Assembly (NCBI GenBank): GCA_951406725.2
Contig: OX597839.1
Coordinates: 12,896,001-12,960,000 of the forward strand
From: Octopus vulgaris
Taxonomy: Eukaryota
DNA: 64,000 bases
Direction of reading: 5' to 3'
In this document: piece by piece, positions 3,523 through 57,539 of the stretch
Position numbering within the stretch: position 1 is the first letter of the stretch
Layout: every line of letters starts with the position of its first letter
Translations under genes and position numbers: made by a program
Notes under the pieces: model-generated
Databases searched by the model: none
What the model was told of the DNA's origin: nothing
What the model saw: only the letters and a program-made list of their open reading frames with translations

Positions 3523-3896
3523 CAAAGACAAAACTTTACCAGCCAACACTTATAAAACCAATTCAAAAACTGTAACGTCCAGCAGTAACTCTGATGCATT
3601 ACTCAGTAGTGAAGATGTAAAAGGAAACAATAATGCAGTACCCAAGCCTACAGGAGAAGGTAATGATAAAATAAGAGAAATACCCAAATCTAATGAAACT
3701 AACGCACTACCTCCACTTTGTAACAATTTCAGCAAGAATACTTGCATTGTGCTTCCTGTTAGAGGAGCTAGTAGCTCTTATGCTCAAGAAGCAGCATGCC
3801 TTCCTATTGAGGAATCTAAAACAAAATCCCTTTCCATTAATTCCCCAAACAACCAGCTAAACTCTGCAAATGTACCCCAAATGTTTCCACAAGGCT
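3523..3896 (+). CDS. Death-domain adaptor (IMD/RIP-like) paralogue 1, internal coding exon (low-complexity N-terminal region)
   Basis: Acceptor tttcatttccattccAG at 3521-3522 and donor GTAAG at 3897. Open frame KDKTLPANTYK...QMFPQG lies within ORF 3470-3931. Phase 2 start, phase 1 end. Homologous to 22788-23167. Confidence 0.85.
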
Positions 3897-5174: not shown

Positions 5175-5312
5175 TTATTCCTGCAACTATTAGAAATGGA
5201 AAGAATGTTGCAGTTGGGGGTGACTCTAATGTTACAAATAGGAAAACCGCAGAACCTGAGAAGAAAAAATGTGAGACTGATAAAGATGAAGTGAAATTCA
5301 GCAAGTATCTCA
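5175..5312 (+). CDS. Death-domain adaptor paralogue 1, coding exon with RHIM-like motif
   Basis: ttttatAG acceptor and GTAAGT donor; 138 nt, phase 1-1. Translates FIPATIRNGKNVAVGGDSNVTNRKTAEPEKKKCETDKDEVKFSKYL in frame with both neighbouring exons. Confidence 0.82.
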
Positions 5313-8044: not shown

Positions 8045-8119
8045 AGTCTAATACAAAACTGACTCAGAAAAGCCTCAACGAAATATCCAAATACTTAGGG
8101 AATAAATGGAAGTCTGTTG
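8045..8119 (+). CDS. Death-domain adaptor paralogue 1, exon encoding Death domain helices 1-2
   Basis: tttttgcAG acceptor and GTAAGT donor; 75 nt. KSNTKLTQKSLNEISKYLGNKWKSV(G) fits the Death-fold L..I...LG..W...GR.L pattern. Confidence 0.88.
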
Positions 8120-9534: not shown

Positions 9535-9740
9535 GTCGAAATTTAGACATTCAAGATGTTTTCCTGGGTAATATTCAATCTGACAACCCAGGGAATACTG
9601 AAGAACAGTGTTTTCAAATGTTGAAGAAATGGTCGGAAATATCTGAGCCAGGGATGTGTACAACAGGCAAATTAGCTAAGGCTCTCATTGATGCTGAGTG
9701 TTATGGTGTGATTCCATATTTACCATTAGATGAGGAGTGA
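9535..9740 (+). CDS. Death-domain adaptor paralogue 1, terminal coding exon (rest of Death domain)
   Basis: tttttattttcAG acceptor. GRNLDIQDVFLGNIQSDNPGNTEEQCFQMLKKWSEISEPGMCTTGKLAKALIDAECYGVIPYLPLDEE*. EQ..QML..W and T...L..AL are Death domain signatures. AATAAA signals at about 10004-10020. Confidence 0.9.
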
Positions 9741-11564: not shown

Positions 11565-13048
11565 TGCCTGTTGAGTGGATTGGAGGGTTAATGTGAAAGG
11601 AAGTATATGACTTAATAGAGTAATCCTATTGACTCATATGTCCAGTTTCCAGGTTTCTCTGACCTATATATATTTTCTCCTGGATGGGATGGGACGGTGG
11701 TCCATCACAGGATTTCTCATTATTGCCTGTTGAGTGAATTGGAGGGTTAATGTGAAAGGAAGTATGTGACTTAATAGAGTAATCCTATTGACTCATATGG
11801 CCAGTTTCCAGGTTTCTCTGACCTATATATATTTTCTCCTGGATGGGATTGGACGGTGGTCCATCACAGGATTTCTCATTATTGCCTGTTGATTGGAATT
11901 GGAGGGTTAATGTGAAAGGAAGTATATGACTTAATAGAGTAATCCTATTGACTCATATGGCCAGTTTCCAGGTTTCTCTGTCCCATATATATATTTTCTC
12001 CTGGATGGGATGGGACGGTGGTCCATCACAGGATTTCTCATTATTGCCTGTTGAGTGGATTGGAGGGTTAATGTGAAAGGAAGTATGTGACTTAATAGAG
12101 TAATCCTATTGACTCATATGGCCAGTTTCCAGGTTTCTCTGACCTATATATATTTTCTCCTGGATGGGATGGGACGGTGGTCCATCACAGGATTTCTCAT
12201 TATTGCCTGTTGAGTGGATTGGAGGGTTAATGTGAAAGGAAGTATATGACTTAATAGAGTAATCCTATTGACTCATATGGCCAGTTTCCAGGTTTCTCTG
12301 CTATATATATTTTCTCCTGGATGGGTGGGACGGTGGTCCATCAAATTTCTCATTATTGCCTGTGAGTGGATTGGAGGGTTAATGTGAAAGGAAGTATTGA
12401 CTTAATAGAGTAATCCTATTGACTCATATGGCCAGTTTCCAGGTTTATCTGACCTATATATATTTTCTCCTGGATGGGATGGGACGGTGGTCCATCACGA
12501 ATTTCTCATTATTGCCAGCTGAGTGGAATTGGAGGGTTAATGTGAAAGGAAGTATATGACTTAATAGAGTAATCCTATTGACTCATATGGCCAGTTTCCA
12601 GGTTTCTCTGTCCCATATATATATTTTCTCCTGGATGGGTTGGGACGGTGGTCCATCATGAATTTCTCATTATTGCCAGCTGAGTGGAATTGGAGGGTTA
12701 ATGTGAAAGGAAGTATATGACTTAATAGAGTAATCCTATTGACTCATATGGCCAGTTTCCAGGTTTCTCTGACCTTTATATATTTTCTCCTGGATGGGAT
12801 GGGGCGGTGGTCCATCACAGGATTTCTCATTATTGCCTGTTGAGTAGATTGGAGGGTTAATGTGAAAGGAAGTATATGACTTAATAGAGTAATCCTATTG
12901 ACTAGTATGGCCAGTTTCCAGGTTTATCTGACCTATATATATTTTCTCCTGGATGGGATGGGATGGTGGTACATCGCAGGATTTCTCATTATTGCCTGCT
13001 GAGTGGATTGGAGGGTTAATGTGAAAGGAAGTATATGACTTAATAGAG
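11565..13048 (+). repeat. Minisatellite, about 160-bp unit, about 9 full copies
   Basis: ggagggttaatgtgaaaggaagt recurs at about 11582, 11741, 11901, 12062, 12221, 12373, 12531, 12692, 12851 and 13010. Confidence 0.95.
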
Positions 13049-13766: not shown

Positions 13767-15745
13767 TGTTGTGGAAGGATCCTGAACACCTCCATGTGAC
13801 AAAAAAACGGACTAACGGATTTTCAATAAATAAAGAACTGTGAGAACTATCAGAAAGTTGATAGCATTGATTGTCCATATTGGTTACTGTGTTAGTTTAA
13901 TATCATAGCTAGGTTTGGAGTAGTACGGAGTGCATTCTGTGTTAACGTAATAATTCTGTGATAGGTTATTCTAGATAACCATATCCAAGTAATTATTTGG
14001 GTAATACTATTCTTACACACATGTCATAATATTTTTGGTGATGAGGATATTCGAACCCATGCTGGACAGGTTATTGTTTGAACATGGAAGATTTACTAGC
14101 TCTGGTAATTCAATTACAGAAACAGCAGCAATACCAGCAGTTGTTGGAATTGCAGAAGCAACAGCAACTGTTAGTACAATGGCTACAGAAGAAAACAGAA
14201 AATATATCAAAAGGATGTGTTATAATACTATTCCACAGTCATACCAACAATCCAATAATACTAATCCATGTATACAAAAACAGCCATACCAATAATCCAA
14301 CATATCCCCATCATCAGCTGCCCATCAGATATCATTATGGTTTTAACACCTGGGCAGTACCATTCAATCTGGCAGTGTCAACAGCACTAAAATAAGTGTT
14401 GTTTGGGAACAAGTAAACCAAAGAAACCACAACTTTCAAACACATTTACCCAATGTACAAACATATCGATAAATACATTCCATAAGTAAATTACAACCAC
14501 TCCTAATTACATAACTAAACAGCGACAGCTCTGTTAAGTCATACAAAAATTGTAATCCCAACCGTCTTCTGTAGTATAATATAAAGGTAAAAGCTTAATG
14601 ACAACTTATTTCAATCAATCAATATATAGGCAGAATGTGTAGTTCATTCTGACATGGTCGCAAACTCCATCTGAGAGTTTGTATATAACCCAGAGGAGGG
14701 TACTACTTTTCCTTCTTACTTTAGAGGGTATGAAGAAATTTTTAAAGAAGAGTGCTCTGACTAGCAAGACGATAAATCAAACCTGACTTTTGTTGAGAAA
14801 GTTGGCATCAGCCAAGCATGAGAAATATTGAAATTACATATTACCAAAGAGATCAGGTAAAGTCTGTTTTGAAGAAAATGTGAATATTCTGTCTAAGATT
14901 TTCAGCGAAAAAGCTCTTTATTTAATATGCATTGGCAATGCATGAATATTACAGAAAAATAAGATGAATATTTTATTACATATACTGGAATTGTTAATAG
15001 GGATAGAGAATGTGAGAGATTTAAAAGTAATGAGCTATATGTTTAAATATTTAATTTTCGTGAAAAGTTTAATAGCAAAGAAAATGTGGAAATTCGGAAC
15101 CAAATTCTGACTAAATTAGAGCAGAATCAGAAGCTAATATTACAAGATATATCTAAAATATCTGAGGAATGCCGATCACATATACAATTGGTGTGACCAA
15201 AGGTAAGTAATGAAAAGGAGAATATTAACCCATGTTTTAGATGTGGAGAATTACACTACAAATTTGACTGTCCTTATAAAAATTGAAAATGCTTCAAGTG
15301 TAGTAAGATAGGTCATAAAAAATCACACTTTTAAACAAAATCTAGAAAATGGTTCAACAGAAAAAAATCACGTAAACTGTTTATCAGTGACAAGAAATAA
15401 AGATGAGACTTAAAAGAAATTTATGTATGTAAAATTTAATAATACAAATGTAAAATTACAGTTAGACACAGGTAGGGACATTATTTTAATTAATGAAAAC
15501 ACATGGAAAAAAAATCAGGAAACCTTCACTACAGAAAACCTCAAAGCTTGCTCGTGGAGTCTTGAGGATTAAATTAATTTTTGAAGGTGAAATTATTTGC
15601 AATGTTACATTTCATTGTAAAACTATAAAAGCAAAAGCTTATGTATTACAAAATACAAGCATTCATTTTGAAATTGACTGGTTGTAACTGTTCAACTTTT
15701 AGCATGCCCTGCAACCCCATAACAGCTATTTGCAATAAAGAAGAA
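13767..15745 (+). mobile_element. Decayed Gypsy LTR retrotransposon: 5' LTR, PBS, gag with CCHC knuckles, aspartic protease
   Basis: TGTTGT start; PBS-like tggtgatgagga at about 14036; Q-rich gag start MEDLLALVIQLQKQQQ; CFRCGELHYKFDC and CFKCSKIGHKKSH knuckles; LQLDTG protease motif; many stops. Confidence 0.8.
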
Positions 15746-17759: not shown

Positions 17760-18890
17760 TATCAATATATTTGCTAGTATATTTATCTGATTTTACAGAT
17801 GCACATATCTCTACATTAAAATGACCTCCTTTTTTGACTAAAAAGAAGTGAGGAATATGGTACTACTGAACGATTATCTAATTCAATATTCGACTTTGTA
17901 AATGTAAAAACCATTATTTCGACATCGCTAAAGTGGATAGCCATTATACCTGTGTAATGTATTTTCCTGAAAGTCTTTAGGGAAATGTTCCTTACATTTC
18001 CCATCAACCATACATGTTGCATTGGATTTATCTCTCCCACATGAAGCATCTAGCATGTTGTTGGTGACATGTCGAAACAGAATTGGCTGTGTTTGTGGAT
18101 TGGAAGTTCTGCATAAACGAATTTATCATAATGTTCTGGATCTCTTTTTAATACAAACAACATATGACAATGGAGTAGCACATGCTTTTGAAACTCTATA
18201 GTCCACATGTACCCTGCAACCTCTCCCACATGTAACCTACAACCTCTTCCACATGTATTCTGTAATCTCTTCCACATGTACCCTACAACCTCTTCCACGT
18301 GTATTCTGTAACCTCTCCCACATGTACCCTGCAACCTCTCCCACATGTACCCTGCAACCTCTTCCACGTGTATTCTGTAACCTCTTCCACATGTACCCTA
18401 CAACTTCTCCCACATGTACCCTGCAACCTCTCCCACATGTACCCTGCAACCTCTCCCACATGTACCCTACAACCTCTTCCACGTGTATTCTGTAACCTCT
18501 TCCACATGTACCCTACAACTTCTCCCACATGTACTCTGCAACCTCTCCCACATGTACCCTGCAACCTCTTCCCCATGCACCCTGCAACCTCTCCCACATG
18601 TACCCTGCAATCACTCCCACATGTTCTCTGCAACCTCTCCCAAAACATTCTTCTCCAAAACATCATGCAAGAGTTCCCAAACTTTCATATTAAATATTCT
18701 GTCAGTTAACTCTGGTCTGTCTGCTAGTGTCTGTCCTGGATAAACTTCATCTGTGATACTGGTCGAGCGACAAAAATTCTGACACGAAATGAAAATTAAA
18801 TTACGGCGATGTACTTACGTAGAAAGTACTTTGATCTGTGATCATGTGCTGAAACAATATCAGTTGCGGCGTGGAAGATGATTATCAGCC
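17760..18890 (-). mobile_element. Helitron Rep (RepHel) coding fragment, degenerate
   Basis: In order: GQTLADRPELTDRIFNMK, IEFQKHVLLHCHML (compare EFQKRGLPHAH, HUH motif), AELP, GEINP, DNRSVVPY. Confidence 0.75.
18203..18640. repeat. Tandem repeat with about 22-bp unit (cacatgtaccctgcaacctctcc), about 20 copies
   Basis: Direct inspection; source of the repetitive ORFs in both directions. Confidence 0.92.
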
Positions 18891-19309
18891 ATTTAAGAAA
18901 ATAAACAGGGAGAGAATGATAAAAATTTGTAGAGTTCAGCAGTCCAACATGGTGAACATATGTATGTATCTGTGTGTCTGTGTCCCCACCACCATCGCTT
19001 GTCAACAGATGTTGGTGTGTTTACATCCCTGTAACTTAGCAGTTTGGCAAAAGAGTCTGATAGAATAAGTACTAGGCTTACAAAGAATAACTCCTGGGGT
19101 TGATTTGTTCAACTAAAGGCAATGCTCCAGCATGGCTGCAGTGAACTGACTGAAACAGGTAAATGAATAATTGTGTGCATGCATGAGAGAGAGAGAAACT
19201 GATGACCTAAATACAATTATGTAATTGAAATCATCTCTTGTATCAGTGACTGCCACTACTACCCACTCCCACTCTGTCATTCACTTTTTTTCCTCACCTG
19301 CGTGAACAG

Positions 19310-19391
19310 CTACATATATAAGCTATATATTGTATTTCTTGTGCTGTAGCTTCTTGTTGAACGTCATTCACAGAAAATAGTTGGGACCACC
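19310..19391 (+). promoter_or_regulatory. Putative core promoter (TATA-like TATATAAG) and 5' UTR of paralogue 2
   Basis: TATATAAG at about 19315-19322, roughly 70 nt upstream of the Kozak ATG. Inferred from position only. Confidence 0.35.
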
Positions 19392-19417
19392 ATGGATGAA
19401 TCCAGAGAAATGCATCG
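19392..19417 (+). CDS. Death-domain adaptor paralogue 2, first coding exon (MDESREMH-R)
   Basis: Strong Kozak context ACCACCATGG. Donor CG/GTTAGT gives phase 2, matching the phase-2 start of exon 22788. Confidence 0.7.
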
Positions 19418-19538
19418 GTTAGTTAACTTTTCAAATAAGTTTTAGTTTTAAATAACCTCATTCTTTTTGTTAGTTTATATTCTGTGCCTGTTAGATCTCT
19501 ATCGAATCCTGAAACTTTCTTATCTTAAAATGAACTAT

Positions 19539-20012
19539 CTTAATACTGTACTGCCAACCAGGAAGTACCAGCACTCCATATAACTTATAACTTTTTGATT
19601 TTTTTGGAATTTTCTGAAAATTTTAGTGATCTTGTGTTCTATACATGGGAATTCATATGTGTTCTATACACAGGAATTCAAATGATTATGAAAACTTAAT
19701 ACTGTACTGCCAACCAGGAAGTACCAGCACTCCATAAAACCACTTATAACTTTTTGATTTTTTGGAATTTTCTGAAAATTTTAGTGATCTTGTGTTCTAT
19801 ACATGGGAATTCATATGTGTTCTATACACAGGAATTCATATGTGTTCTATACACAGGAATCCAAATGATTATGAAAACTTAATACTGTACTGCCAACCAG
19901 GAAGTACCAGCACTCCATAAAACCTCTTATAACTTTTTGATTTTTTGGAATTTTCAGAAAATTTTTGTGTGTTTGTGTTCTATACATAGGAATTCTTATG
20001 TTTATGAAAACT
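19539..20012 (+). repeat. Three tandem copies of a 155-180-bp unit in intron 1 of paralogue 2
   Basis: cttaatactgtactgccaaccaggaagtaccagcactccat at about 19539, 19696 and 19877. Confidence 0.9.
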
Positions 20013-20754
20013 AAAACATTTGGTGTGTGCGTTTAAGGCAATATAACTTTATTTTAGCACAGCTCACTAATACCTCATGTCTTCCTTGCACTGACATTTA
20101 TTGATGTTTTTCAACGTTTTTCTCCCCATAAACACATTTAATGGAATGATGATGCACTCAAGGGTGGTTAATTGCTGGAATTTATTAATAAGAAAAAAAA
20201 TTGAAAAAGTTTCAACTTTTAGGAGTAGAGTTAAAAAAAATTAAGAAAAGAAAATTTTTTTTCATAATCATATATGGAGGCATGGCTGTGTGGTGAGAAG
20301 CATAGTTCGCAACCACATGGTTCTGGGTTCAGTCCCATTACATGGCACCTCAAGTAAGTGTTTTCTATTATATTCTCAGGCCAACCAAAGACTCAAGAAT
20401 GGATTTGGTAGATGGAAACTGAAAGAAGCCCACATATATATGGCTATTTATATACATGTATATATAAATGTAGCCATGTGTGTGTGTCTTTATGTCTATG
20501 ATTGTCCACCCGTCATCACTTGACAACTGGTATTGGTGTGATTATGTCACTGTAACTTTGCAGTCCAGCAAAAGTGACTGATAGAATAAATGCCAGGCTT
20601 AAAAATAAGCACTGGAATTGATTTGTGACCCCTTCAAGGTGATACTGTAGTATGGGCTCAATCAAATGACTGAAACAACTAAAAAAAATAAGGAACAAAT
20701 TCATCATTCCATTAAAAGTCCCATCATTATACGTTGGGGCCCACACTGTAAGCA

Positions 20755-20793
<39 letters not shown>

Positions 20794-21345
20794 CAATAAG
20801 AAAATGGAGGGGATCAATAGGTGGTTCATCAACTTTTAGACACTATATTATAAATAAAGAAGTTAACATAACACAATGTGATGAACCACCTCTTGATCCC
20901 CTCTATTTTCTAATTGCTCTATAAATTAATGGTAAAATATCTCTTTACCTTCACCCATTTAGTACACTAGGTAAAGTAATTGCAATGCAATAAAAAACAC
21001 TTGTGTATTAATAATTGGGTATTCTACCAACAGTATATTGGATAAATTTTATCCATTAGTGGGTTGCATTCATAACCTCTAACTTTCTTGGAGTTGTGGC
21101 ACATAAAAAGCACCATCCGATCGTGGCCGTTTGCCAGACTCGTCTGGCACCTGTGCCGGTGGCACGTAAAAAGCACCCACTACACTCATGGAGTGGTTGG
21201 TGTTAGGAAGGGCAACCAGCCGTAGAAACATTGCCAGATCAGACTGGGCCTGGTGCAGCCTTCTGGCTTCCCAGACCCCAGTTGCACCGTCCAACCCATG
21301 CCAGCATGGAAAGCGGATGCTAAACGATGATGATGATGATGATGA

Positions 21346-21381
<36 letters not shown>

Positions 21382-22787
21382 CAAGTAGGGGCTCATCAAG
21401 GATCATTCTTCAGCCCCCTCTTGTTTATCATAGTCCTTCAGGCAATAACAAAGGAATTTAGGACAGGCTGCCCCAGGGAGCCATGTTTGAGAAGACCTGC
21501 CAAGAATAGTGGAATCGTAGTTATGGCTGATGCTGGTGTCATGTAACAGGCCCCTGTACCAGTGACATGTAAAAAGCACCCTTCACAGAGAGTGTTAATC
21601 TCTAACTGTGGAGGGAGCCTGTGGAAGAGGTTGACTAAGACCATTTGTGATACACTGTTATTCAGAAAACTGAAACCTTCGGTGATATGCTATGTTTTCA
21701 GAAGACCTGTCAAGCCAAATGAAATCATAGCTGTGGCCAATGCCTATTTTTTACATAATGAATTTGCCTACCAATATATATTGTTCTACTTTGTACAAAA
21801 CTTTAGCTATATTGGTATTTCTGGCTTGATTACTAAACGCATAGAAAAGATGTTATACTTAGTAGATGGAAGAAAATGGGTATACAAGAGACACATAAAT
21901 CAACTAAAAGATTCGTTGAGTGTGAACCCAAGAGAATGGAAGAACCAATGGAATGGTTATATGACATTTTTCAAGTGCCAATGCCAATACAAATAACCCA
22001 GATGCACAAGAAAAAGAAAATATATATAGTTCCAGGAAGTGGATGCCAAACGAAAAATATATTAAACTTGTAACTGTATGGAAAAAAACCCACTCAAGTT
22101 GGATGATGTAAAAATTATTGTTAATAAAAAGAAATGAAATTACTCTCCTTAAGAAAAAAAACTTAAAAGGGAGATGTTACGGGAATAATAATAATAATGG
22201 AACACGCCTCCCATGAGATAAGTGGTATGTGCAAGTCGTTACAAATACTGTGACATAAGAAGTCAAGTCATCAAGAAGTTGGAGAAGTCAGTCATAGATA
22301 GTCAAGTCTTACTTGTCTAACTAATTATACTGCTATCCCAGAGTGGATGTTACAACAGTCTGACATATGATTACAACAGGATCAATAAAATAAGTACCAA
22401 TTGAACACTGTGGTTGATTTAATCGACTTCGTCCTTTCCCCAAAACTGATGACCTTATGCCAAAATTTGAAACCAATATAAAGAATAAATTAATTTGATA
22501 AATAATATCAGTTCAATTTTACTTCTGTAAAACAAAAACTTATGAATCTGTTGTTCAACACTGAAAAATGACTATGACAAAGACTTCACCTTTCAACTAA
22601 GAAAATGTATTTTGTATGTAGTTTATTTTAAGATATTTTTGTTTCTTCTCACTCTCCATAACTACATTTCCTGACCACTCCTTTTCCACCTCCAACTGTG
22701 TAATATATTTACACATAAATGTATACATGTATGTTTGTGGAATGAACTCATAATGGATATTTTATTTATCTTTCATTTCCATTCCAG

Positions 22788-23167
22788 CAAAGACGAAACT
22801 TTACCAGCCAATTCAAAAACTGTAATGTCCAGTAGTAACTCTGATACATTACTCAGTAGTGAAGATGTAAAAGGGAACAATAATGTAGTACCCAAGCCTA
22901 CAGAAGAAGGCAACGATAAAATAAGAGAAATACCCAAATCTAATGAAGCTAGTCGCATTGAAACTGACGCGCTACCTGTACCTTGTAACAATTCCAGCAA
23001 GAATACTTGCAATGAGCTTTCCAATAGAGGAGCTTGTAGTGCTAATGTTCAAGAAGTAACAGACATTGATACTGATATGAAGAACGTTTCCGTTAATTCC
23101 CCAAACGACTCTTTTAATACCATTCAACCTTCAATTAAAAATACATCCCAAATATTTCATCAAGGCT
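22788..23167 (+). CDS. Death-domain adaptor paralogue 2, coding exon 2 (contains IETD/ALPV)
   Basis: Same acceptor and donor as 3523-3896; 380 nt, within ORF 22735-23262. KDETLPANSK...SRIETDALPVPC...QIFHQG. Confidence 0.85.
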
Positions 23168-23468
23168 GTAAGCACCATTCTTTTTATATTTTCTTAGATA
23201 ACTTCACCATCATTACTTTGCTATCATTACTTTGTTGTTGCTTCCCTATCATCATTACTTAATAATCATTACTCATTATGTTGTCATCACTACTTTTCCA
23301 TCATTTCTTTATTATCATTACTTTGTAATTATTACCATTTTTACTTTGTTAGTAATACTTTGGCCATTTTTGCTAAACTGCTAAGTTTGGGGACATCAGT
23401 TGTCAGGTGATGGTGGCGGGACAAACATAAGCACAACCATATACATACATACATACATTTATATATAT

Positions 23469-26400
23469 GAGATCGTCGAGATGCTTGAATGGAGATGTGT
23501 TGATATATGTTGCATCCAAGAGGTAAGGTGGAGAGGAGGCTCTGCTAGGTTCCTCACAGGCAAAGAACACAGGTACAAGATTTTCTGGGCAGGGAACACT
23601 GACAGGGTTGGGGGTGTGGGTATACTTCTCACTGAAAAATGGGTAGATAAGGTAATTGAGGTAATTAGAGTATGTGACAGAATACTTAAGATTAGATTAG
23701 TGCTTCATCATGGATTAGCAACCATTATATCGGCCTATGCCCCTCAGCTGGGGCTACCTGATGGACAGAAAGACCGATTCTATGACACCCTACTGCAGAC
23801 TACCTCGTTGACGAACGACAGAGACCTCCTTGTAGCTGGTGACTTCAATGGGCATGCTGGACAACATGCTGAGGGCTTCCATGGTGTACATGGAGGCTAT
23901 GGTTATGGTTCCCGCAACAAGGAGGGAACCAGGTTGCTGGAGTTCTGTGGTGCAAATGATCTTATGGTTTGCAACACAAACTTCAGGAAACCTACCAGCC
24001 ACCTAGTCACCTACCGATCGGGCCGACATTCTAGCCAAATTGACTACATCCTTGCCAGGAAAAGGGAAAGATGGTTGCTTATAAATGCCAAAACCTTCCC
24101 GGACAAAGAATGTACCCCACAACATAGACTGGTAGTTAGTGACTTTAGGATCAGGACTAAGAGGACAACCAGAAGACGACCAACATAGAGAAGAAGGATC
24201 TGGAAGCTTAAAGATCCTGTGAATGGACAGAGATTTAGGGACATATTACTTGAAGCCTTTGACGAAGTAGAAGGGGATATAGCTTCACATGAGGTAGAAG
24301 ACAACTGGAAGTTTCTATGAGACAACCTGCTGAGAGCCACTGACCAGATCTGTGGTTGGTGCAAAGTCCCCTCACGACCCAAAATAACGTGGTGGTAGAA
24401 CAATGCTGTAGACAGAGCTATTAGAGAAAAGAGACAGGCTTTGAAGGACTGGAAGAATGGTGGTAGCAGGGAATTGTATCAGACTGCCAAAAAAGAAGCT
24501 AGGAGACAGGTCTATTTAGCCAGAGGGGAAGCAGATAAGAAAAAATTTGCCAATGTTCTGCTCCATGAGGACAAAAGACAAAGTATTTCGTGTTGCAAGA
24601 CAGTGTGTGAGAGAGAATTGTGATGAGGTAGGAGAGAAATGTGTTCGCATGGATGATGGTTCACTTGTGCTAAATGAGGATGCAAAGAGAGAGGTTTGGA
24701 GACGCCACTATGAAAGGTTGCTGAATAAAGAAAATGAATGGGATAAAGAGAGTCTGCCGAATGTCGACCCAACAGAGGGATCAGCTATCGGAGTTGACAG
24801 TTCCTTGGTAGTTAAGGCAATTAGAAGCATGAAGACAGGGAAAGCCCCAGGCTCATCAGGAATTACTGCAGAGATGCTCAAAATATCTGGTAGTGTCGGC
24901 TATAGCCTTGTCACCCGTATAGTTAACCAGGTGATACACAAAGGAGTCATACCCAATGACTGGTGTAGCAGCATAATAGTCAACTGCTACAAAGGTAAAG
25001 GTGACGCCCTAGATACAAATAATTACAGAAGTATCAAGCTGTTGGATCAGGTAATGAAAGTTACGGAGAGGGTCATAGCTCAACTAATTAGAGAGAGAGT
25101 TAGTTTAGATGAGATGCAGTTTGGTTTTGTGCCAGGGAAAAGTACCACTGATGCTATATTCCTGGTAAGACAGCTGCAGGAGAAATACCTAGCCAAAGAT
25201 AAGCCTCTGTACCTGGCTTTTGTTGACATGGAGAAAGCCTTCGACAGGGTCCCCCGATCCCTTATCTGGTGGTCAATGAGGAAACTAGGGATAGATGAAT
25301 GGTTAGTGAGAGCTATGCAAGCCACGTACAGGGATGCTGCTAGTAAGGTGAGGCTTGGCAACGAGTACAGTGAAGAATTCCGGGTAGAGGTAGGGGTCCA
25401 CCAAGGTTCAGTCCTCAGCCCCCTCCTATTTATCATAGTCCTCCAGGCAATAACGGAGGAATTCAAGACAGGATGCCCCTGGAAGCTCCTCTATGCTGAT
25501 GACCTTGCTCTAATTGCAGAGTCACTATCCACAACTAGAGGAGAAGTTTCAGGTGTGGAAGCAAGGATTAGAATTGAAGGGCCTTAGAGTCAACCTAGCT
25601 AAAACCAAAGTCCTAATAAGGAGGAAAGTAGACAAATCACAAACACCTTCAGGTAGATGGCCTTGCTCAATCTGTAGATAAGGCGTAGGTAGAAACCCTA
25701 TAAGATGCACCAAGTGTAAGCTATGGACACATAAGAGGTGCAGCAATGTCAAAGGAAGGCTAACTAGGAAGATAGTTTTTGTATGTGGCAGATGCTCAGG
25801 AGCAATAAACACTGAAAATGCGCAGAGATCAACTTCCGCCACATTTCAGGGAGAAAAACTAGAAATAGTTGATAGTTTCCGTTACCTAGGTGACCAAGTC
25901 AGTAGCGGGTGTGCTGAAAGTGTAACTGCTAGAGTAAGAATAGCCTGGGCAAAGTTCAGAGAGCTCTTACCTCTGCTGGTGACAAAAGTCCTCTCGCTCA
26001 GAATAAAAGGCAGACTGTATGACGCATGTGTACGAACAGCCATGTTACATGGCAGTGATACATCGGCCGTGACTGCTGCGGATATGCGTAAGCTCGCAAG
26101 AAATGAAGCCAGTATGCCCCGATGGATGTGTAATGTCAGTGTTCATACTCGACAGAGTGTAAGTACCTTCAGAGAAAAGTTGGACCTAAGAAGCATCAGT
26201 TGTGGTGTGCAAGAGAGACGTTTGCACTGGTATGGTCATGTGGGAAAAAAGAATGAAGATAGTTGTGTGAAAAAGTGCCACACCCTAGCGGTTGAGGGAA
26301 CCTGTGGAAGAGGGAGACCCAGGAAAACCTGGGACGAGATGGTGAAGCATGACCTTCGAAATTTAGGTCTCACCGAGGAAATGACTAGAGACCGAGACCT

Positions 26401-26750
26401 TTAGAACTATGCTGTGCGTGAGAAGACACAGCAAGACAAGTGAGACCATAACCCGTGGCCTCTACCTGGGATGTAGCCAGTCCACTTATGCATACCTTTT
26501 CTTCTTGGGACACAAAACTCTACTTGTGAAGACCTGTTGAGGCAAGTGAAAATCAAAATCAATATTGAAATCGATCAACATCAATGGAAATTGTAGCTGT
26601 GATACCAGTGCCGGTGGTACATAAAAGAACCATCCGAACATGGCCGTTGCCAGCGCTGCCCGACTGGCCTCCGTGCCGGTGGCACGTAAAAAGCACCCAC
26701 TACACTCACGGAGTGGTTGGCGTTAGGAAGGGCATCCAGCTGTAGAAACT
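23469..26750 (+). mobile_element. Near full-length RTE-clade LINE (APE endonuclease, reverse transcriptase, Cys-rich insert), inactivated
   Basis: ORF 23400-24188 has DICCIQEVRW, AGDFNGH, SQIDYIL and TPQHRLV. ORF 24547-25587 has QFGF, FVDMEKAFD, GVHQGSVLSP and LYADD. Premature stops and frameshifts present. Confidence 0.93.
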
Positions 26751-30650: not shown

Positions 30651-30776
30651 CAAATGTTAACATTAATAATGTAGTCTGCGATACCTATGTTGCCTCAAAT
30701 AATAATAATACCGCAGAACCTGAGAAGAAAAAATGTGAGGCTGATAAAGATGAAGTGAATTTCAGCAGGTATCTCA
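30651..30776 (+). CDS. Death-domain adaptor paralogue 2, coding exon 3
   Basis: tttattccAG acceptor and GTAAGT donor; 126 nt. SNVNINNVVCDTYVASNNNNTAEPEKKKCEADKDEVNFSRYL; 3' half homologous to 5175-5312. Confidence 0.8.
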
Positions 30777-36441: not shown

Positions 36442-36516
36442 AGTCTAATACAAAACTGACTCAGAAACGCCTCAACAAAATAGCCGTATACCTAGGGAAT
36501 AAATGGAAGTCTGTTG
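36442..36516 (+). CDS. Death-domain adaptor paralogue 2, coding exon 4 (Death domain start)
   Basis: AG/GT flanks; 75 nt. KSNTKLTQKRLNKIAVYLGNKWKSV(G). Confidence 0.88.
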
Positions 36517-37798: not shown

Positions 37799-38004
37799 GT
37801 CGAAATTTAGACATTCAAGATGTTTTCCTGGGTAATATTCAATCTGACAACCCAGGGAATACTGAAGAACAGTGTTTTCAAATGTTGAAGAAATGGTTGG
37901 AAATATCTGAGACAGGGATGTGTACAACAGGCAAATTAGCTAAGGCTCTCATTGATGCTGAGTGTTATGGTGCGATTCCACATTTACCATTAGATGAGGA
38001 GTGA
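37799..38004 (+). CDS. Death-domain adaptor paralogue 2, terminal coding exon
   Basis: ttttcAG acceptor. GRNLDIQDVFLGNIQSDNPGNTEEQCFQMLKKWLEISETGMCTTGKLAKALIDAECYGAIPHLPLDEE*. Confidence 0.9.
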
Positions 38005-54773: not shown

Positions 54774-56711
54774 TCAAGGGTAATAGCCTAACGATTTCTC
54801 AAAGTTCATGTTATCATGTCGATTGTAGTTTGACTGTATGTGTTGTCTCTCAATTTCAATATTTTGAAACATAGAAGCAATTTCTGCCTCTTTACTGCCA
54901 ATGTTTAGATGTGGGTTACTAGCAGCATACTGCTTATAATTATGACTATACTCCTGCCTTCGCATCGCATCTTCATTTGCATGTGAATGTCTGTCTTGTT
55001 CAACAGACATATCTGGTTTGTATTGCCTGTCCCTTACAGCTGGGTTGTAGTTTGGGTTCAACTGGTTAGGGTAGTGGTTTGTCTGGTATTGCCTGTAGAT
55101 GTCATTCTGTGACATTGTAGGTATTTGACTTTTGTAATAATCATTAGCTGTAGCCATTGACATAGGTCTTGGTTCACCAGCTGACAATGAAGAACGAAGG
55201 TGATTTCTGCTGCCTTCACCAGACTTTGAATCAAAGGCATAGGCATTTGAATAACGGTTGTTAGGCGTTCTATGGTCATGACTGCTATGTCTATATTGCA
55301 CAACTTCCTTATCCCAGTTGGTCTCATTGGCAGAAAGTTTGGCACTGTTATCATATTCCTGATGAGATGGTTTAGGTGAAATCGGTCTTTTAGGTAATTC
55401 AAATGCTGTTGGCAACACTTTTACTCCAGCTATTTTGTGGGGCGGTACTTTTGCAATGGGCTTGTTGCGTGCTGCTTCAAATGACTGACCAGTATCGCTT
55501 CTGTCAAACTGCTGCCGGCTTTCAAGGTTTGAGAGTGAAAACATAGGCCCAGAATGATTCAATGGCTCTGAAGTAAATGAATTTGGTTGATACTGTTGTG
55601 AGTGTGGCATTTTTGGAGAGTATGGCTCACTAGCATTTGTTTTCTGTGTCATTGCGTGTAATTCCCCTGCCTGTCTCTGTTGTTCATCATAATTTGGATA
55701 TTGTCCATAGCCTCGAATATTTTCGCTCATTGGACGACCATACTTCGAAGGAAACCTTTGGCGGTTTTCTTGATTATGAGGATAATCAGCTTGGTCTTCT
55801 CGATTGGCAGTAGGTCTTTCATAGTAAGAATGTCCTCTAGAGAGTTGCACTTGTCTGTTTTGGTGGGGTGAACCAGGGAATGGTGGTTGCTGATTATAAG
55901 GCTGTGGTTGCCCATACGGATGTTGGCTGCGGACATCAGGAAACCTGTTATTATCATCTAAGGCCCAGTCATCATGCACTTGGTGCCGGAAGTACTCATC
56001 ACGCAGTTGGTAGCGTTCATTAGGGTGAGATGGCGGGTATTGTCCAGATGCCATGGCGTTACTGCCAACAGCTTGATTTTCTGGAAGAGGGTGGAAGTTC
56101 ATTTCATTTGTTCTGGGGTCTTTGGGGTAGGCATTTTGTGAAGCAGCACCAAAGTCACCAATGTATTCTTTTTGCATGGATTTTTGTTGCATGAAATTAA
56201 AACTCTCCACAATTTTAGTAGCATCTGTCGTTGACAAAGAAAGAAAAACATGGCAGTCCAAAGCTTTTAAACCTGCCTGACGCCTTAATAAACAGACAAC
56301 AATAGGCTGATGAGAGATTTTCAGTAGATAATTGTTTTTCTTTTCCAGAGTAGAAAAGAGTTTGTCTGGAGACCTAACAATACGTTTCTCATCAAGAGGC
56401 ATAAAAGCAAACTGGGTCTTCCGTGTATTGTTCTTGTTTATCGTAAACTGAACTGCTTCCATGTAATTGATCATATTAAAATCATAATGAGTATTTTTTA
56501 AGAAGCTTCCACTACCAGATCCATTTGAAGTTAATATGTCTAATCCTTTGTAGGTGATTTGCATGTAGACTTCGGCTGGTGATTTGGTGACTTTCTTGTG
56601 GAAGTTGAAGTAATGCTCTTTCAAAGGTTTCTGTATTGATCCCAATCCGGTGGTTCCTTTCGACAAAGTAGAGCAGCCCAGGTAATGTAGGGTGTAGGTT
56701 AGATCCGACAT
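54774..56711 (-). CDS. Uncharacterised 645-aa protein: N-terminal PTB/PH-like domain and long Q/N/Y/P-rich disordered tail
   Basis: Uninterrupted 1938-nt ORF. YTLHYLG, VYMQIT..GLDI and LDCHVF.....DA..IV..F resemble PTB domains. Splice acceptor (ttttattttccAG) 6 nt upstream of the ATG, so a single coding exon starting at 56717. Confidence 0.9.
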   Translation of the reverse strand: MSDLTYTLHYLGCSTLSKGTTGLGSIQKPLKEHYFNFHKKVTKSPAEVYMQITYKGLDILTSNGSGSGSFLKNTHYDFNMINYMEAVQFTINKNNTRKTQFAFMPLDEKRIVRSPDKLFSTLEKKNNYLLKISHQPIVVCLLRRQAGLKALDCHVFLSLSTTDATKIVESFNFMQQKSMQKEYIGDFGAASQNAYPKDPRTNEMNFHPLPENQAVGSNAMASGQYPPSHPNERYQLRDEYFRHQVHDDWALDDNNRFPDVRSQHPYGQPQPYNQQPPFPGSPHQNRQVQLSRGHSYYERPTANREDQADYPHNQENRQRFPSKYGRPMSENIRGYGQYPNYDEQQRQAGELHAMTQKTNASEPYSPKMPHSQQYQPNSFTSEPLNHSGPMFSLSNLESRQQFDRSDTGQSFEAARNKPIAKVPPHKIAGVKVLPTAFELPKRPISPKPSHQEYDNSAKLSANETNWDKEVVQYRHSSHDHRTPNNRYSNAYAFDSKSGEGSRNHLRSSLSAGEPRPMSMATANDYYKSQIPTMSQNDIYRQYQTNHYPNQLNPNYNPAVRDRQYKPDMSVEQDRHSHANEDAMRRQEYSHNYKQYAASNPHLNIGSKEAEIASMFQNIEIERQHIQSNYNRHDNMNFEKSLGYYP

Positions 56712-57539
56712 TGTGCTCTGGAAAATAAAAATAAAACTGAATTAGTGACATCCATTTCTGAATATAACGAAGAAAAAAAAATAAACCATCATCAACAACA
56801 CAGGCACTGAAGATGATTACAATGGTGATGGCATTATTATGAGGATGATGACGATGATAGTGACCATGATGATGGTATCGATGATAATGATGACAACAAC
56901 TACGAGGGTGACGATAATAATGGCGTTGGGGTACTCAGTTTGATAATTTTTAAAGTACAAATGTCAAACTTTTATACGTGTGTGCATGTTTTATGTATGT
57001 GCATGTCTTGTGTGTGCATGTGGAGTGGATATTTTGCCAACTTGATAATTATTGCAGCTGTTATTGTTATTGTTGCTGTTGTTCATGTTGATATTATGTA
57101 GCCCCAGCTCAGCAGACTAATAATACCTAAGTGTTATTCAACAAGCTACTCCTAAACTAAGTATTTGTTAAGAGAAGTAGGGAATATTTTCCTCATATTT
57201 AATATCTACTATTAAATATCCTCATATTAATAACTGTTATTGGTATCTACTATTAATAAGGCAGTGAGCTGGCAGAATCATTAGCCCGATGGGTGAAATG
57301 CTTATCAGCATTTCATCTGTCTTTACATTCTGAGTTCAATTTTTGCCGGGGTCAACCTTGCCTTTCATCATTCCAGGGTCAGTAAAATAAGTACCTGTTG
57401 AGTACTGGGGTCAATGTAATCAACTAGCCCCCTTTCCCTGAACATGCTGCCTTGTGCTGAAATTTGAAATCTATTTTCTTATTTCTTTACCGACCACAAG
57501 GGGCTGCACACAGAGGGGACAAACAAGGACAGACAAACG

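Follow-up and report, generated by a model that had tools for sequence, protein, structure and literature searches.

IETD is the consensus cleavage sequence of caspase-8, and IAP antagonists of the Smac/Reaper type expose a new N-terminus of the form A-x-P-hydrophobic. RIPK1 is cut after its kinase domain, a cleavage that is inactivating and is not known to expose an IAP-binding motif. IMD-like sequences have reportedly been found in bivalves. In the fly, the cRHIM of the receptor has been described as seeding an IMD amyloid and the death domain of IMD as bringing in FADD and DREDD, after which the motif exposed in DREDD-cut IMD recruits DIAP2 for K63 chains and TAK1 (PMC9496462; bioRxiv 10.1101/2020.05.29.122978). 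The insect IMD sites given in PMC6626034 read LKSDA, LTTDA, LETDA and LEKDA, and the site lies at position 10-30. The existence of an IMD pathway outside arthropods was described in 2023 as unclear; according to that report the Imd adaptor had not been found in molluscs or brachiopods, and a nemertean Imd was reported by its death domain (PMC9835746). Within the portions available of the respective reports, there is no RIPK orthologue in Aplysia (PMC9334734) and no RIP homologue in Biomphalaria (PMC8995041), RIP1 transcripts occur in an oyster and a RIP-like gene in a mussel (PMC4892480), cephalopods have 8 to 11 IAPs (PMC13159474), and caspase-8 transcripts are given for O. vulgaris hemocytes with no mention of IMD (PMC4199593). 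The literature covered, largely outside subscription journals, gave no account of a caspase/IAP-binding site in any IMD-like protein from molluscs.

The window analysed here is a stretch of 64,000 nucleotides of the Octopus vulgaris genome (assembly GCA_951406725.2, contig OX597839.1, positions 12,896,001 to 12,960,000 of the forward strand, the contig being labelled G000:C26 below), in which two copies of a death-domain gene are present. Window positions 22957-22980 encode IETDALPV in frame within the spliced gene of copy 2, as residues 66-73 (the Asp being residue 69) of a kinase-less protein of 270 aa with a death domain, modelled from five coding exons. The features of the two copies are as follows.

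19392 to 19417, plus strand: first coding exon of copy 2, with the start codon, comprising 8 codons and 2 nt; joint to 22788 in runs X1 and X5
22788 to 23167, plus strand: copy 2 exon A, a low-complexity linker, predicted disordered, that bears the motif
22957 to 22980, plus strand: IETD/ALPV, predicted to be cut by a caspase (P1 D69) and to bind an IAP through the residues after the cut; its homologue in type 3 is KTD/AVP[QR]
23053 to 23076, plus strand: EVTDIDTD, an acidic stretch unique to copy 2
30651 to 30776, plus strand: copy 2 exon B, a degraded RHIM-like place (no V/I/L-x-x-G core) and the first part of the death domain; splice sites deduced from the sequence
36442 to 36516, plus strand: copy 2 exon C, death domain
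37799 to 38004, plus strand: copy 2 exon D, remaining death domain and stop
3523 to 3896, plus strand: copy 1 exon A, the first exon of copy 1 lying 3.2 kb upstream of the window
3692 to 3715, plus strand: NETNALPP of copy 1, with 15 nt deleted and Asn in place of Asp at the homologous site
5175 to 5312, plus strand: copy 1 exon B, RHIM-like core VAVG at 5207-5218
8045 to 8119, plus strand: copy 1 exon C, death domain
9535 to 9740, plus strand: copy 1 exon D, death domain and stop

The first-pass annotation had read residues 66-73 of copy 2 as IETDALPV, and this reading was borne out, in frame, in the internal exon 22788-23167. The joint from 19417 to 22788, with GT..AG ends, was present in contigs from two of four runs (X1 and X5, from two studies), and among the matches listed, contigs with 0 differences covered 22910-23024 in X1 and X6 and 22878-23101 in X18. 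The expression evidence for copy 2 is this spliced joint, none of the runs being recorded as RNA; the reads reach only 18660-23380, and the A-B, B-C and C-D junctions of copy 2 were deduced from sequence together with the NCBI models available for its sister copies. An open reading frame beginning at the ATG at 22753 was rejected as a start because this position falls inside the intron. The peptide of the first coding exon also occurs in O. sinensis model P0002. NCBI model P0001 begins instead with a Gln-rich peptide resembling window 14045-14395, not the read-supported start exon of copy 2, which is probably a mis-prediction. A second contig form with 6-7 differences over 22910-23024 was found in X1, X5 and X6 (three runs, two organisms) and is not in this assembly; it may be an allele or a paralogue missing from the assembly, and the differences listed for its X6 version include a replacement of the P1 Asp by Ala. 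At window 23385-26404, the intron that follows exon A of copy 2 contains a broken LINE-type retroelement with endonuclease and reverse-transcriptase-like frames recognised by eye.

Copy 2 is the last gene of a tandem array of six exon-A copies at 12.798-12.919 Mb, each preceded by its own start exon, consisting of three type-3 copies (one with a 1-nt frameshift and one cut by a 100-N gap), two type-1 copies with identical exon A, and the single type 2. At the homologous site the type-3 copies read SKTD/AVPQ or AVPR, and at residue 14 they carry DETD/AVPL; the six bases that encode its Asp-Ala are missing from copies 1 and 2. Type 3 thus has candidate sites at D14 and D92, and also bears ETK/AVPI and DDD/SIPK. 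The proposal that the motif occurs in paralogue 2 only consequently stands for the two copies in the window and fails in the array, where all three type-3 copies bear KTD/AVP[QR]. Copy 1, which is matched by an NCBI Octopus vulgaris protein, reads NETNALPP and lacks 15 nt that fall between two TGAA words, both as first described, and D/[AS]-x-P is absent from its exon A. Since the type-3 copies retain both the 15 nt and the Asp, the Asp is ancestral and the state of copy 1 derived by loss.

Several further observations concern the array and its surroundings. The 100-N gap at G000:C26:12891212-12891312 divides the array, and because the blocks flanking it are 98-99% alike, some copies may be haplotypes and the copy number inflated. 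The frameshifted type-3 copy (L005, G000:C26:12826325 onward) is joined to a type-1-like last exon, and NCBI model P0139 merges it with the copy upstream. Tandem repeats with units of approximately 159, 23 and 414 bases were observed at window 11565-13048 and 18202-18642 and at G000:C26:12846633-12856972, the 414-base unit lying in the first intron in a number that is very variable among gene copies. Outside the array there are at least 37 more related death-domain exons (contigs C29, C31, C1 and others; L032-L046), which resemble octopus proteins named MIB2-like (ankyrin, RING-like and death domains) and amount to a large expansion. On the minus strand, window 54774-56741 holds a 655-codon open frame of a neighbouring gene that matches no Pfam family and whose start resembles a PTB domain.

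When the copy 2 exon was shuffled 20,000 times, the pattern E-x-D/A-x-P-hydrophobic had p 0.00035 and D/A-x-P p 0.023, and across the six frames of the window these patterns gave 1 and 13 matches, respectively. Both patterns were picked after the motif was seen, so the homologues constitute the real test. A search with P0001 over 1.84 billion representatives gave 114 matches, and D/A-x-P was present in 7 of these 114 death-domain matches, with P0003 and P0007 holding five of the ten sites. O. bimaculoides P0116 carries DEID/AVPL and NKTD/AVPQ, with which O. sinensis P0137 agrees, and in the full models of type 3 and its Octopus counterparts DE[TI]D/AVPL stands at residue 14. The number of sites per protein is two in the O. 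bimaculoides protein and three in P0007, an unnamed record of 299 aa, 38% identical across the C-terminal half, in which IKID/AMPV, PKTD/ANPI and LKPD/AMPI head internal repeats that are followed by a RHIM-like motif and a death domain. None of 20,000 shuffles matched the three D/A[MN]P[VI] sites of P0007, which are not independent as they head repeats; D/A-x-P is kept at every head, the rest of the repeats differing. P0007 grouped with the octopus sequences in a quick death-domain tree, weakly supported (85). At P4-P3, type 3 has SK or NK and P0007 has residues of the IK, PK or LK type, so that P3 of type 3 is Lys, unlike the IETD consensus.

Beyond this group, P0054 (the Anabrus 'immune deficiency' protein) carries LTTD/SVPE and a beetle protein VVTD/ACPS. 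D/[AS]-x-P was found in 5 of 12 RHIM-like proteins chosen by eye versus 4 of 102 others (Fisher p 0.0005, a post hoc comparison over related rows). It is absent in four gastropod RHIM-like death-domain proteins (P0021, P0041, P0073 and P0111) and in the partial Argonauta protein P0006, the seven of 12 without it being these five, O. sinensis P0002 and an annelid kinase; in P0002, a type-1-like model, the motif region is missing altogether. Three word-indexed searches returned Octopus proteins and P0007 only, with squid, cuttlefish and bivalves outside the by-name sampling, and P0004 (116 aa), the closest O. bimaculoides paralogue of copies 1 and 2, entered the comparison without its exon A. 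The suggested conservation of xExD/AxP in cephalopods and molluscs is thus seen as D/A-x-P in other Octopus species and P0007, and is not seen in the gastropod look-alikes, in P0006 or in the exact spelling IETD. Because the type-3 copies, their O. bimaculoides and O. sinensis counterparts and P0007 share D/A-x-P, the site is ancestral, and its recurrence in sister genes and other octopus species indicates that the motif is likely an inherited, predicted cut-then-bind switch resembling that of IMD and not unique to copy 2. EVTDIDTD, which had been put forward as a second acidic site, is indeed present in copy 2 and absent in copy 1; as a second switch it was discarded, being in no other copy and having neither a small residue nor an IAP-binding motif after it.

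The Pfam Death family was above cut-off in P0001, P0002, P0116, P0137 and P0007, and the last exon of copy 2 alone gave E 0.009. The AlphaFold model of the O. bimaculoides homologue has pLDDT < 50 over almost the whole of residues 1-192, with a confident helical domain after them; against PDB sequences its death domain best matched RIPK1 (E 9e-12, versus 2e-4 for TRADD), and the top four sequence matches and top two fold matches were all RIPK1. No kinase was matched up to E 1 in the 260 kb at 12.70-12.96 Mb, and none of the octopus proteins gave a Pfam RHIM match at E 1 or lower. A home-made RHIM profile was built from eight non-octopus matches and is weak, three of these having failed leave-one-out. 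Of 2000 shuffles, 4-6 beat type 3, 1 beat type 1 and 1444 beat copy 2 with all eight rows, and 4-5, 397 and 1654, respectively, did so with four rows. The copy 2 score thus lies under most shuffles, and the [VIL]xxG core is absent from its exons A and B. The modules are distributed differently within the family, with two sites, a putative RHIM-like motif and a death domain in type 3, a putative RHIM-like motif and no site in copy 1, and one site and no RHIM-like core in copy 2, which is also without the N-terminal (residue 14) site kept by type 3. The loss in copy 2 of a RHIM-like motif kept by the other types was overlooked in the first-pass annotation.

In comparison with arthropod IMD (Drosophila LEKD/A, Tenebrio LTTD/A; PMC6626034, PMC9496462), the octopus family is likewise kinase-less and 270-300 aa long, with a disordered N-terminal half bearing D/A sites, a putative RHIM-like motif (types 1 and 3) and a C-terminal death domain, and caspase, FADD-like and IAP genes are present in the octopus genome. 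Unlike arthropod IMD, which has one site, the octopus family has two or three sites per protein and forms a tandem array in which sites and RHIM-like motif were lost separately, the sole site of copy 2 being at residue 69. The octopus proteins share with RIPK1 the death domain (best sequence and fold match) and a putative RHIM-like motif ahead of it and are named 'RIPK1-like' in databases, and differ from it in having no kinase domain. They resemble the nemertean Imd of Lineus ruber in being spiralian death-domain proteins; that Imd was identified by its death domain, and the sole passage on 'cleavage' in the available text concerns complement (PMC9835746). The predicted A-x-P-hydrophobic new N-terminus is like that of Smac/Reaper-type antagonists, and differs in that it would be bared by a caspase cut within a death-domain protein. 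A quick tree of 103 death domains, which has no resolution at such depth, did not join the octopus family to insect IMD; querying the genome with P0054 yielded a single match (E 0.84), outside this locus, and Atlas matches at 0.88-0.89 are leads only. An IMD or RIPK1 orthologue was not identified in the genome with an insect IMD or an annelid RIPK-like kinase query, searches that intron-split genes would escape; the two inspected of 34 matches resemble Mos and a ROR-type receptor kinase.

Candidate partners appear to be available. The genome contains 26 BIR matches, several with the acidic and Trp groove residues typical of IAP-binding BIRs, in grooves that look intact. Two tandem DED exons lie approximately 20 kb upstream of a caspase exon (SHG, QACQ) and a single DED is found elsewhere, the DED, caspase and BIR exons being presumed to assemble into genes. 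The caspase exon that follows the DED pair (region of G000:C22:23318865, L084) has QACQN in its genomic frame and, after it, SID/AMG, which may be a cut site in the linker.

These observations are consistent with a family of candidate IMD adaptors that most likely works like IMD, as judged from sequence and domain order. The preferred reading, with a probability of about 0.5, is that a cut at the copy 2 site is followed by IAP binding, and that copy 2 modulates signalling without initiating it. The death domain would bring in a caspase-8-like enzyme, presumably through FADD; cleavage after D69 of copy 2 is moderately probable, and binding of the new ALPV end by a BIR domain, once cut, would be highly probable, after which the cut protein would be ubiquitinated. 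The analogy to IMD drawn at the outset is supported, as is the recurrence of D/A-x-P among homologues. The type-3 copies, with every sequence element of the fly scheme, are likely to be the complete adaptor. Copy 2 may be a receptor-uncoupled modulator, entering via the death domain and competing for caspase and IAP; the loss of the RHIM-like motif makes it an unlikely main activator and a likelier modulator.

Exons A and B of copies 1 and 2 are 85-86% identical versus 98-99% for the adjacent introns, and in the four recent last (death-domain) exons 11 of 201 sites vary, all non-synonymously, compared with 4 of 350 flanking sites (Fisher p 0.005; the all-non-synonymous pattern alone has p 0.08), which suggests diversifying selection or gene conversion of introns in the array. 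An appreciable but minor possibility is that the copy 2 site is a non-functional relic in a fast-evolving repeated linker, surviving by descent while the paralogue decays or needs only its death domain. The values of dN and dS for exon A were 0.19 and 0.19 between copies 1 and 2, and 0.46 and 0.59 against type 3; as dN is near dS, there is little sign of constraint on exon A as a whole, as a relic would lead one to expect. The same reading would accommodate the loss of the site in copy 1, its absence from P0002 and the gastropod look-alikes, the Ala in one X6 contig form, and the lack in copy 2 of both the N-terminal site and the RHIM-like core. It is opposed by the retention of D/A-x-P between copy 2 and type 3 despite approximately 42% exon identity and a dS of 0.59, by its presence at each repeat head of the otherwise differing P0007 repeats, and by the splicing and open frame of copy 2.

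It is more doubtful that the protein behaves like RIPK1 or Smac, with a caspase-8 cut switching it off, or with an ALPV-death-domain fragment blocking IAPs and promoting apoptosis. The death domain is closest to that of RIPK1, and a protein with several ends of the IAP-binding type would make a fitting IAP sink; the annelid protein P0022, an Owenia kinase-RHIM-like-death domain protein, has KLD/AATE at residue 338 after the kinase domain, where RIPK1 is cut, as a candidate caspase site that would leave Ala at the new end. The octopus proteins, however, have no kinase to disable, the residue 14 site of type 3 falls at the IMD position of 10-30, and the small size and domain order are those of IMD. 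The strict version of the original proposal, in which copy 2 is the specially activatable adaptor and copy 1 its uncleavable sister, is very improbable, for although the P4-P1 residues of copy 2 come closest to the caspase-8 type, with a hydrophobic P4' at the site, and exon A of copy 1 is without D/[AS]-x-P, it is type 3 that has two sites and a RHIM-like motif, whereas the N-terminal site is gone from copy 2, as is the RHIM-like core, the fourth Gly of which is described as absolutely conserved (PMC10268257).

Returning to the IMD-like reading, a bolder form of it can be put forward tentatively, in which octopuses possess a true IMD-type adaptor whose switch was multiplied within the protein and whose modules were split among paralogues under diversifying selection, with type 3 as activator, copy 1 as an uncleavable RHIM-bearing brake and copy 2 as a cleavable RHIM-less IAP sink. 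The annotation 'RIPK1' is misleading for octopus proteins without a kinase and is corrected here. The natural loss-of-site and loss-of-RHIM paralogues serve as built-in controls and make the IMD question directly testable. The octopus family provides named proteins whose sequences bear the marks of IMD activation, in a phylum in which, according to PMC9835746, IMD had not been found. If the bolder form holds, the caspase-cut/IAP-binding switch, so far described in arthropods, would date to the protostome ancestor.
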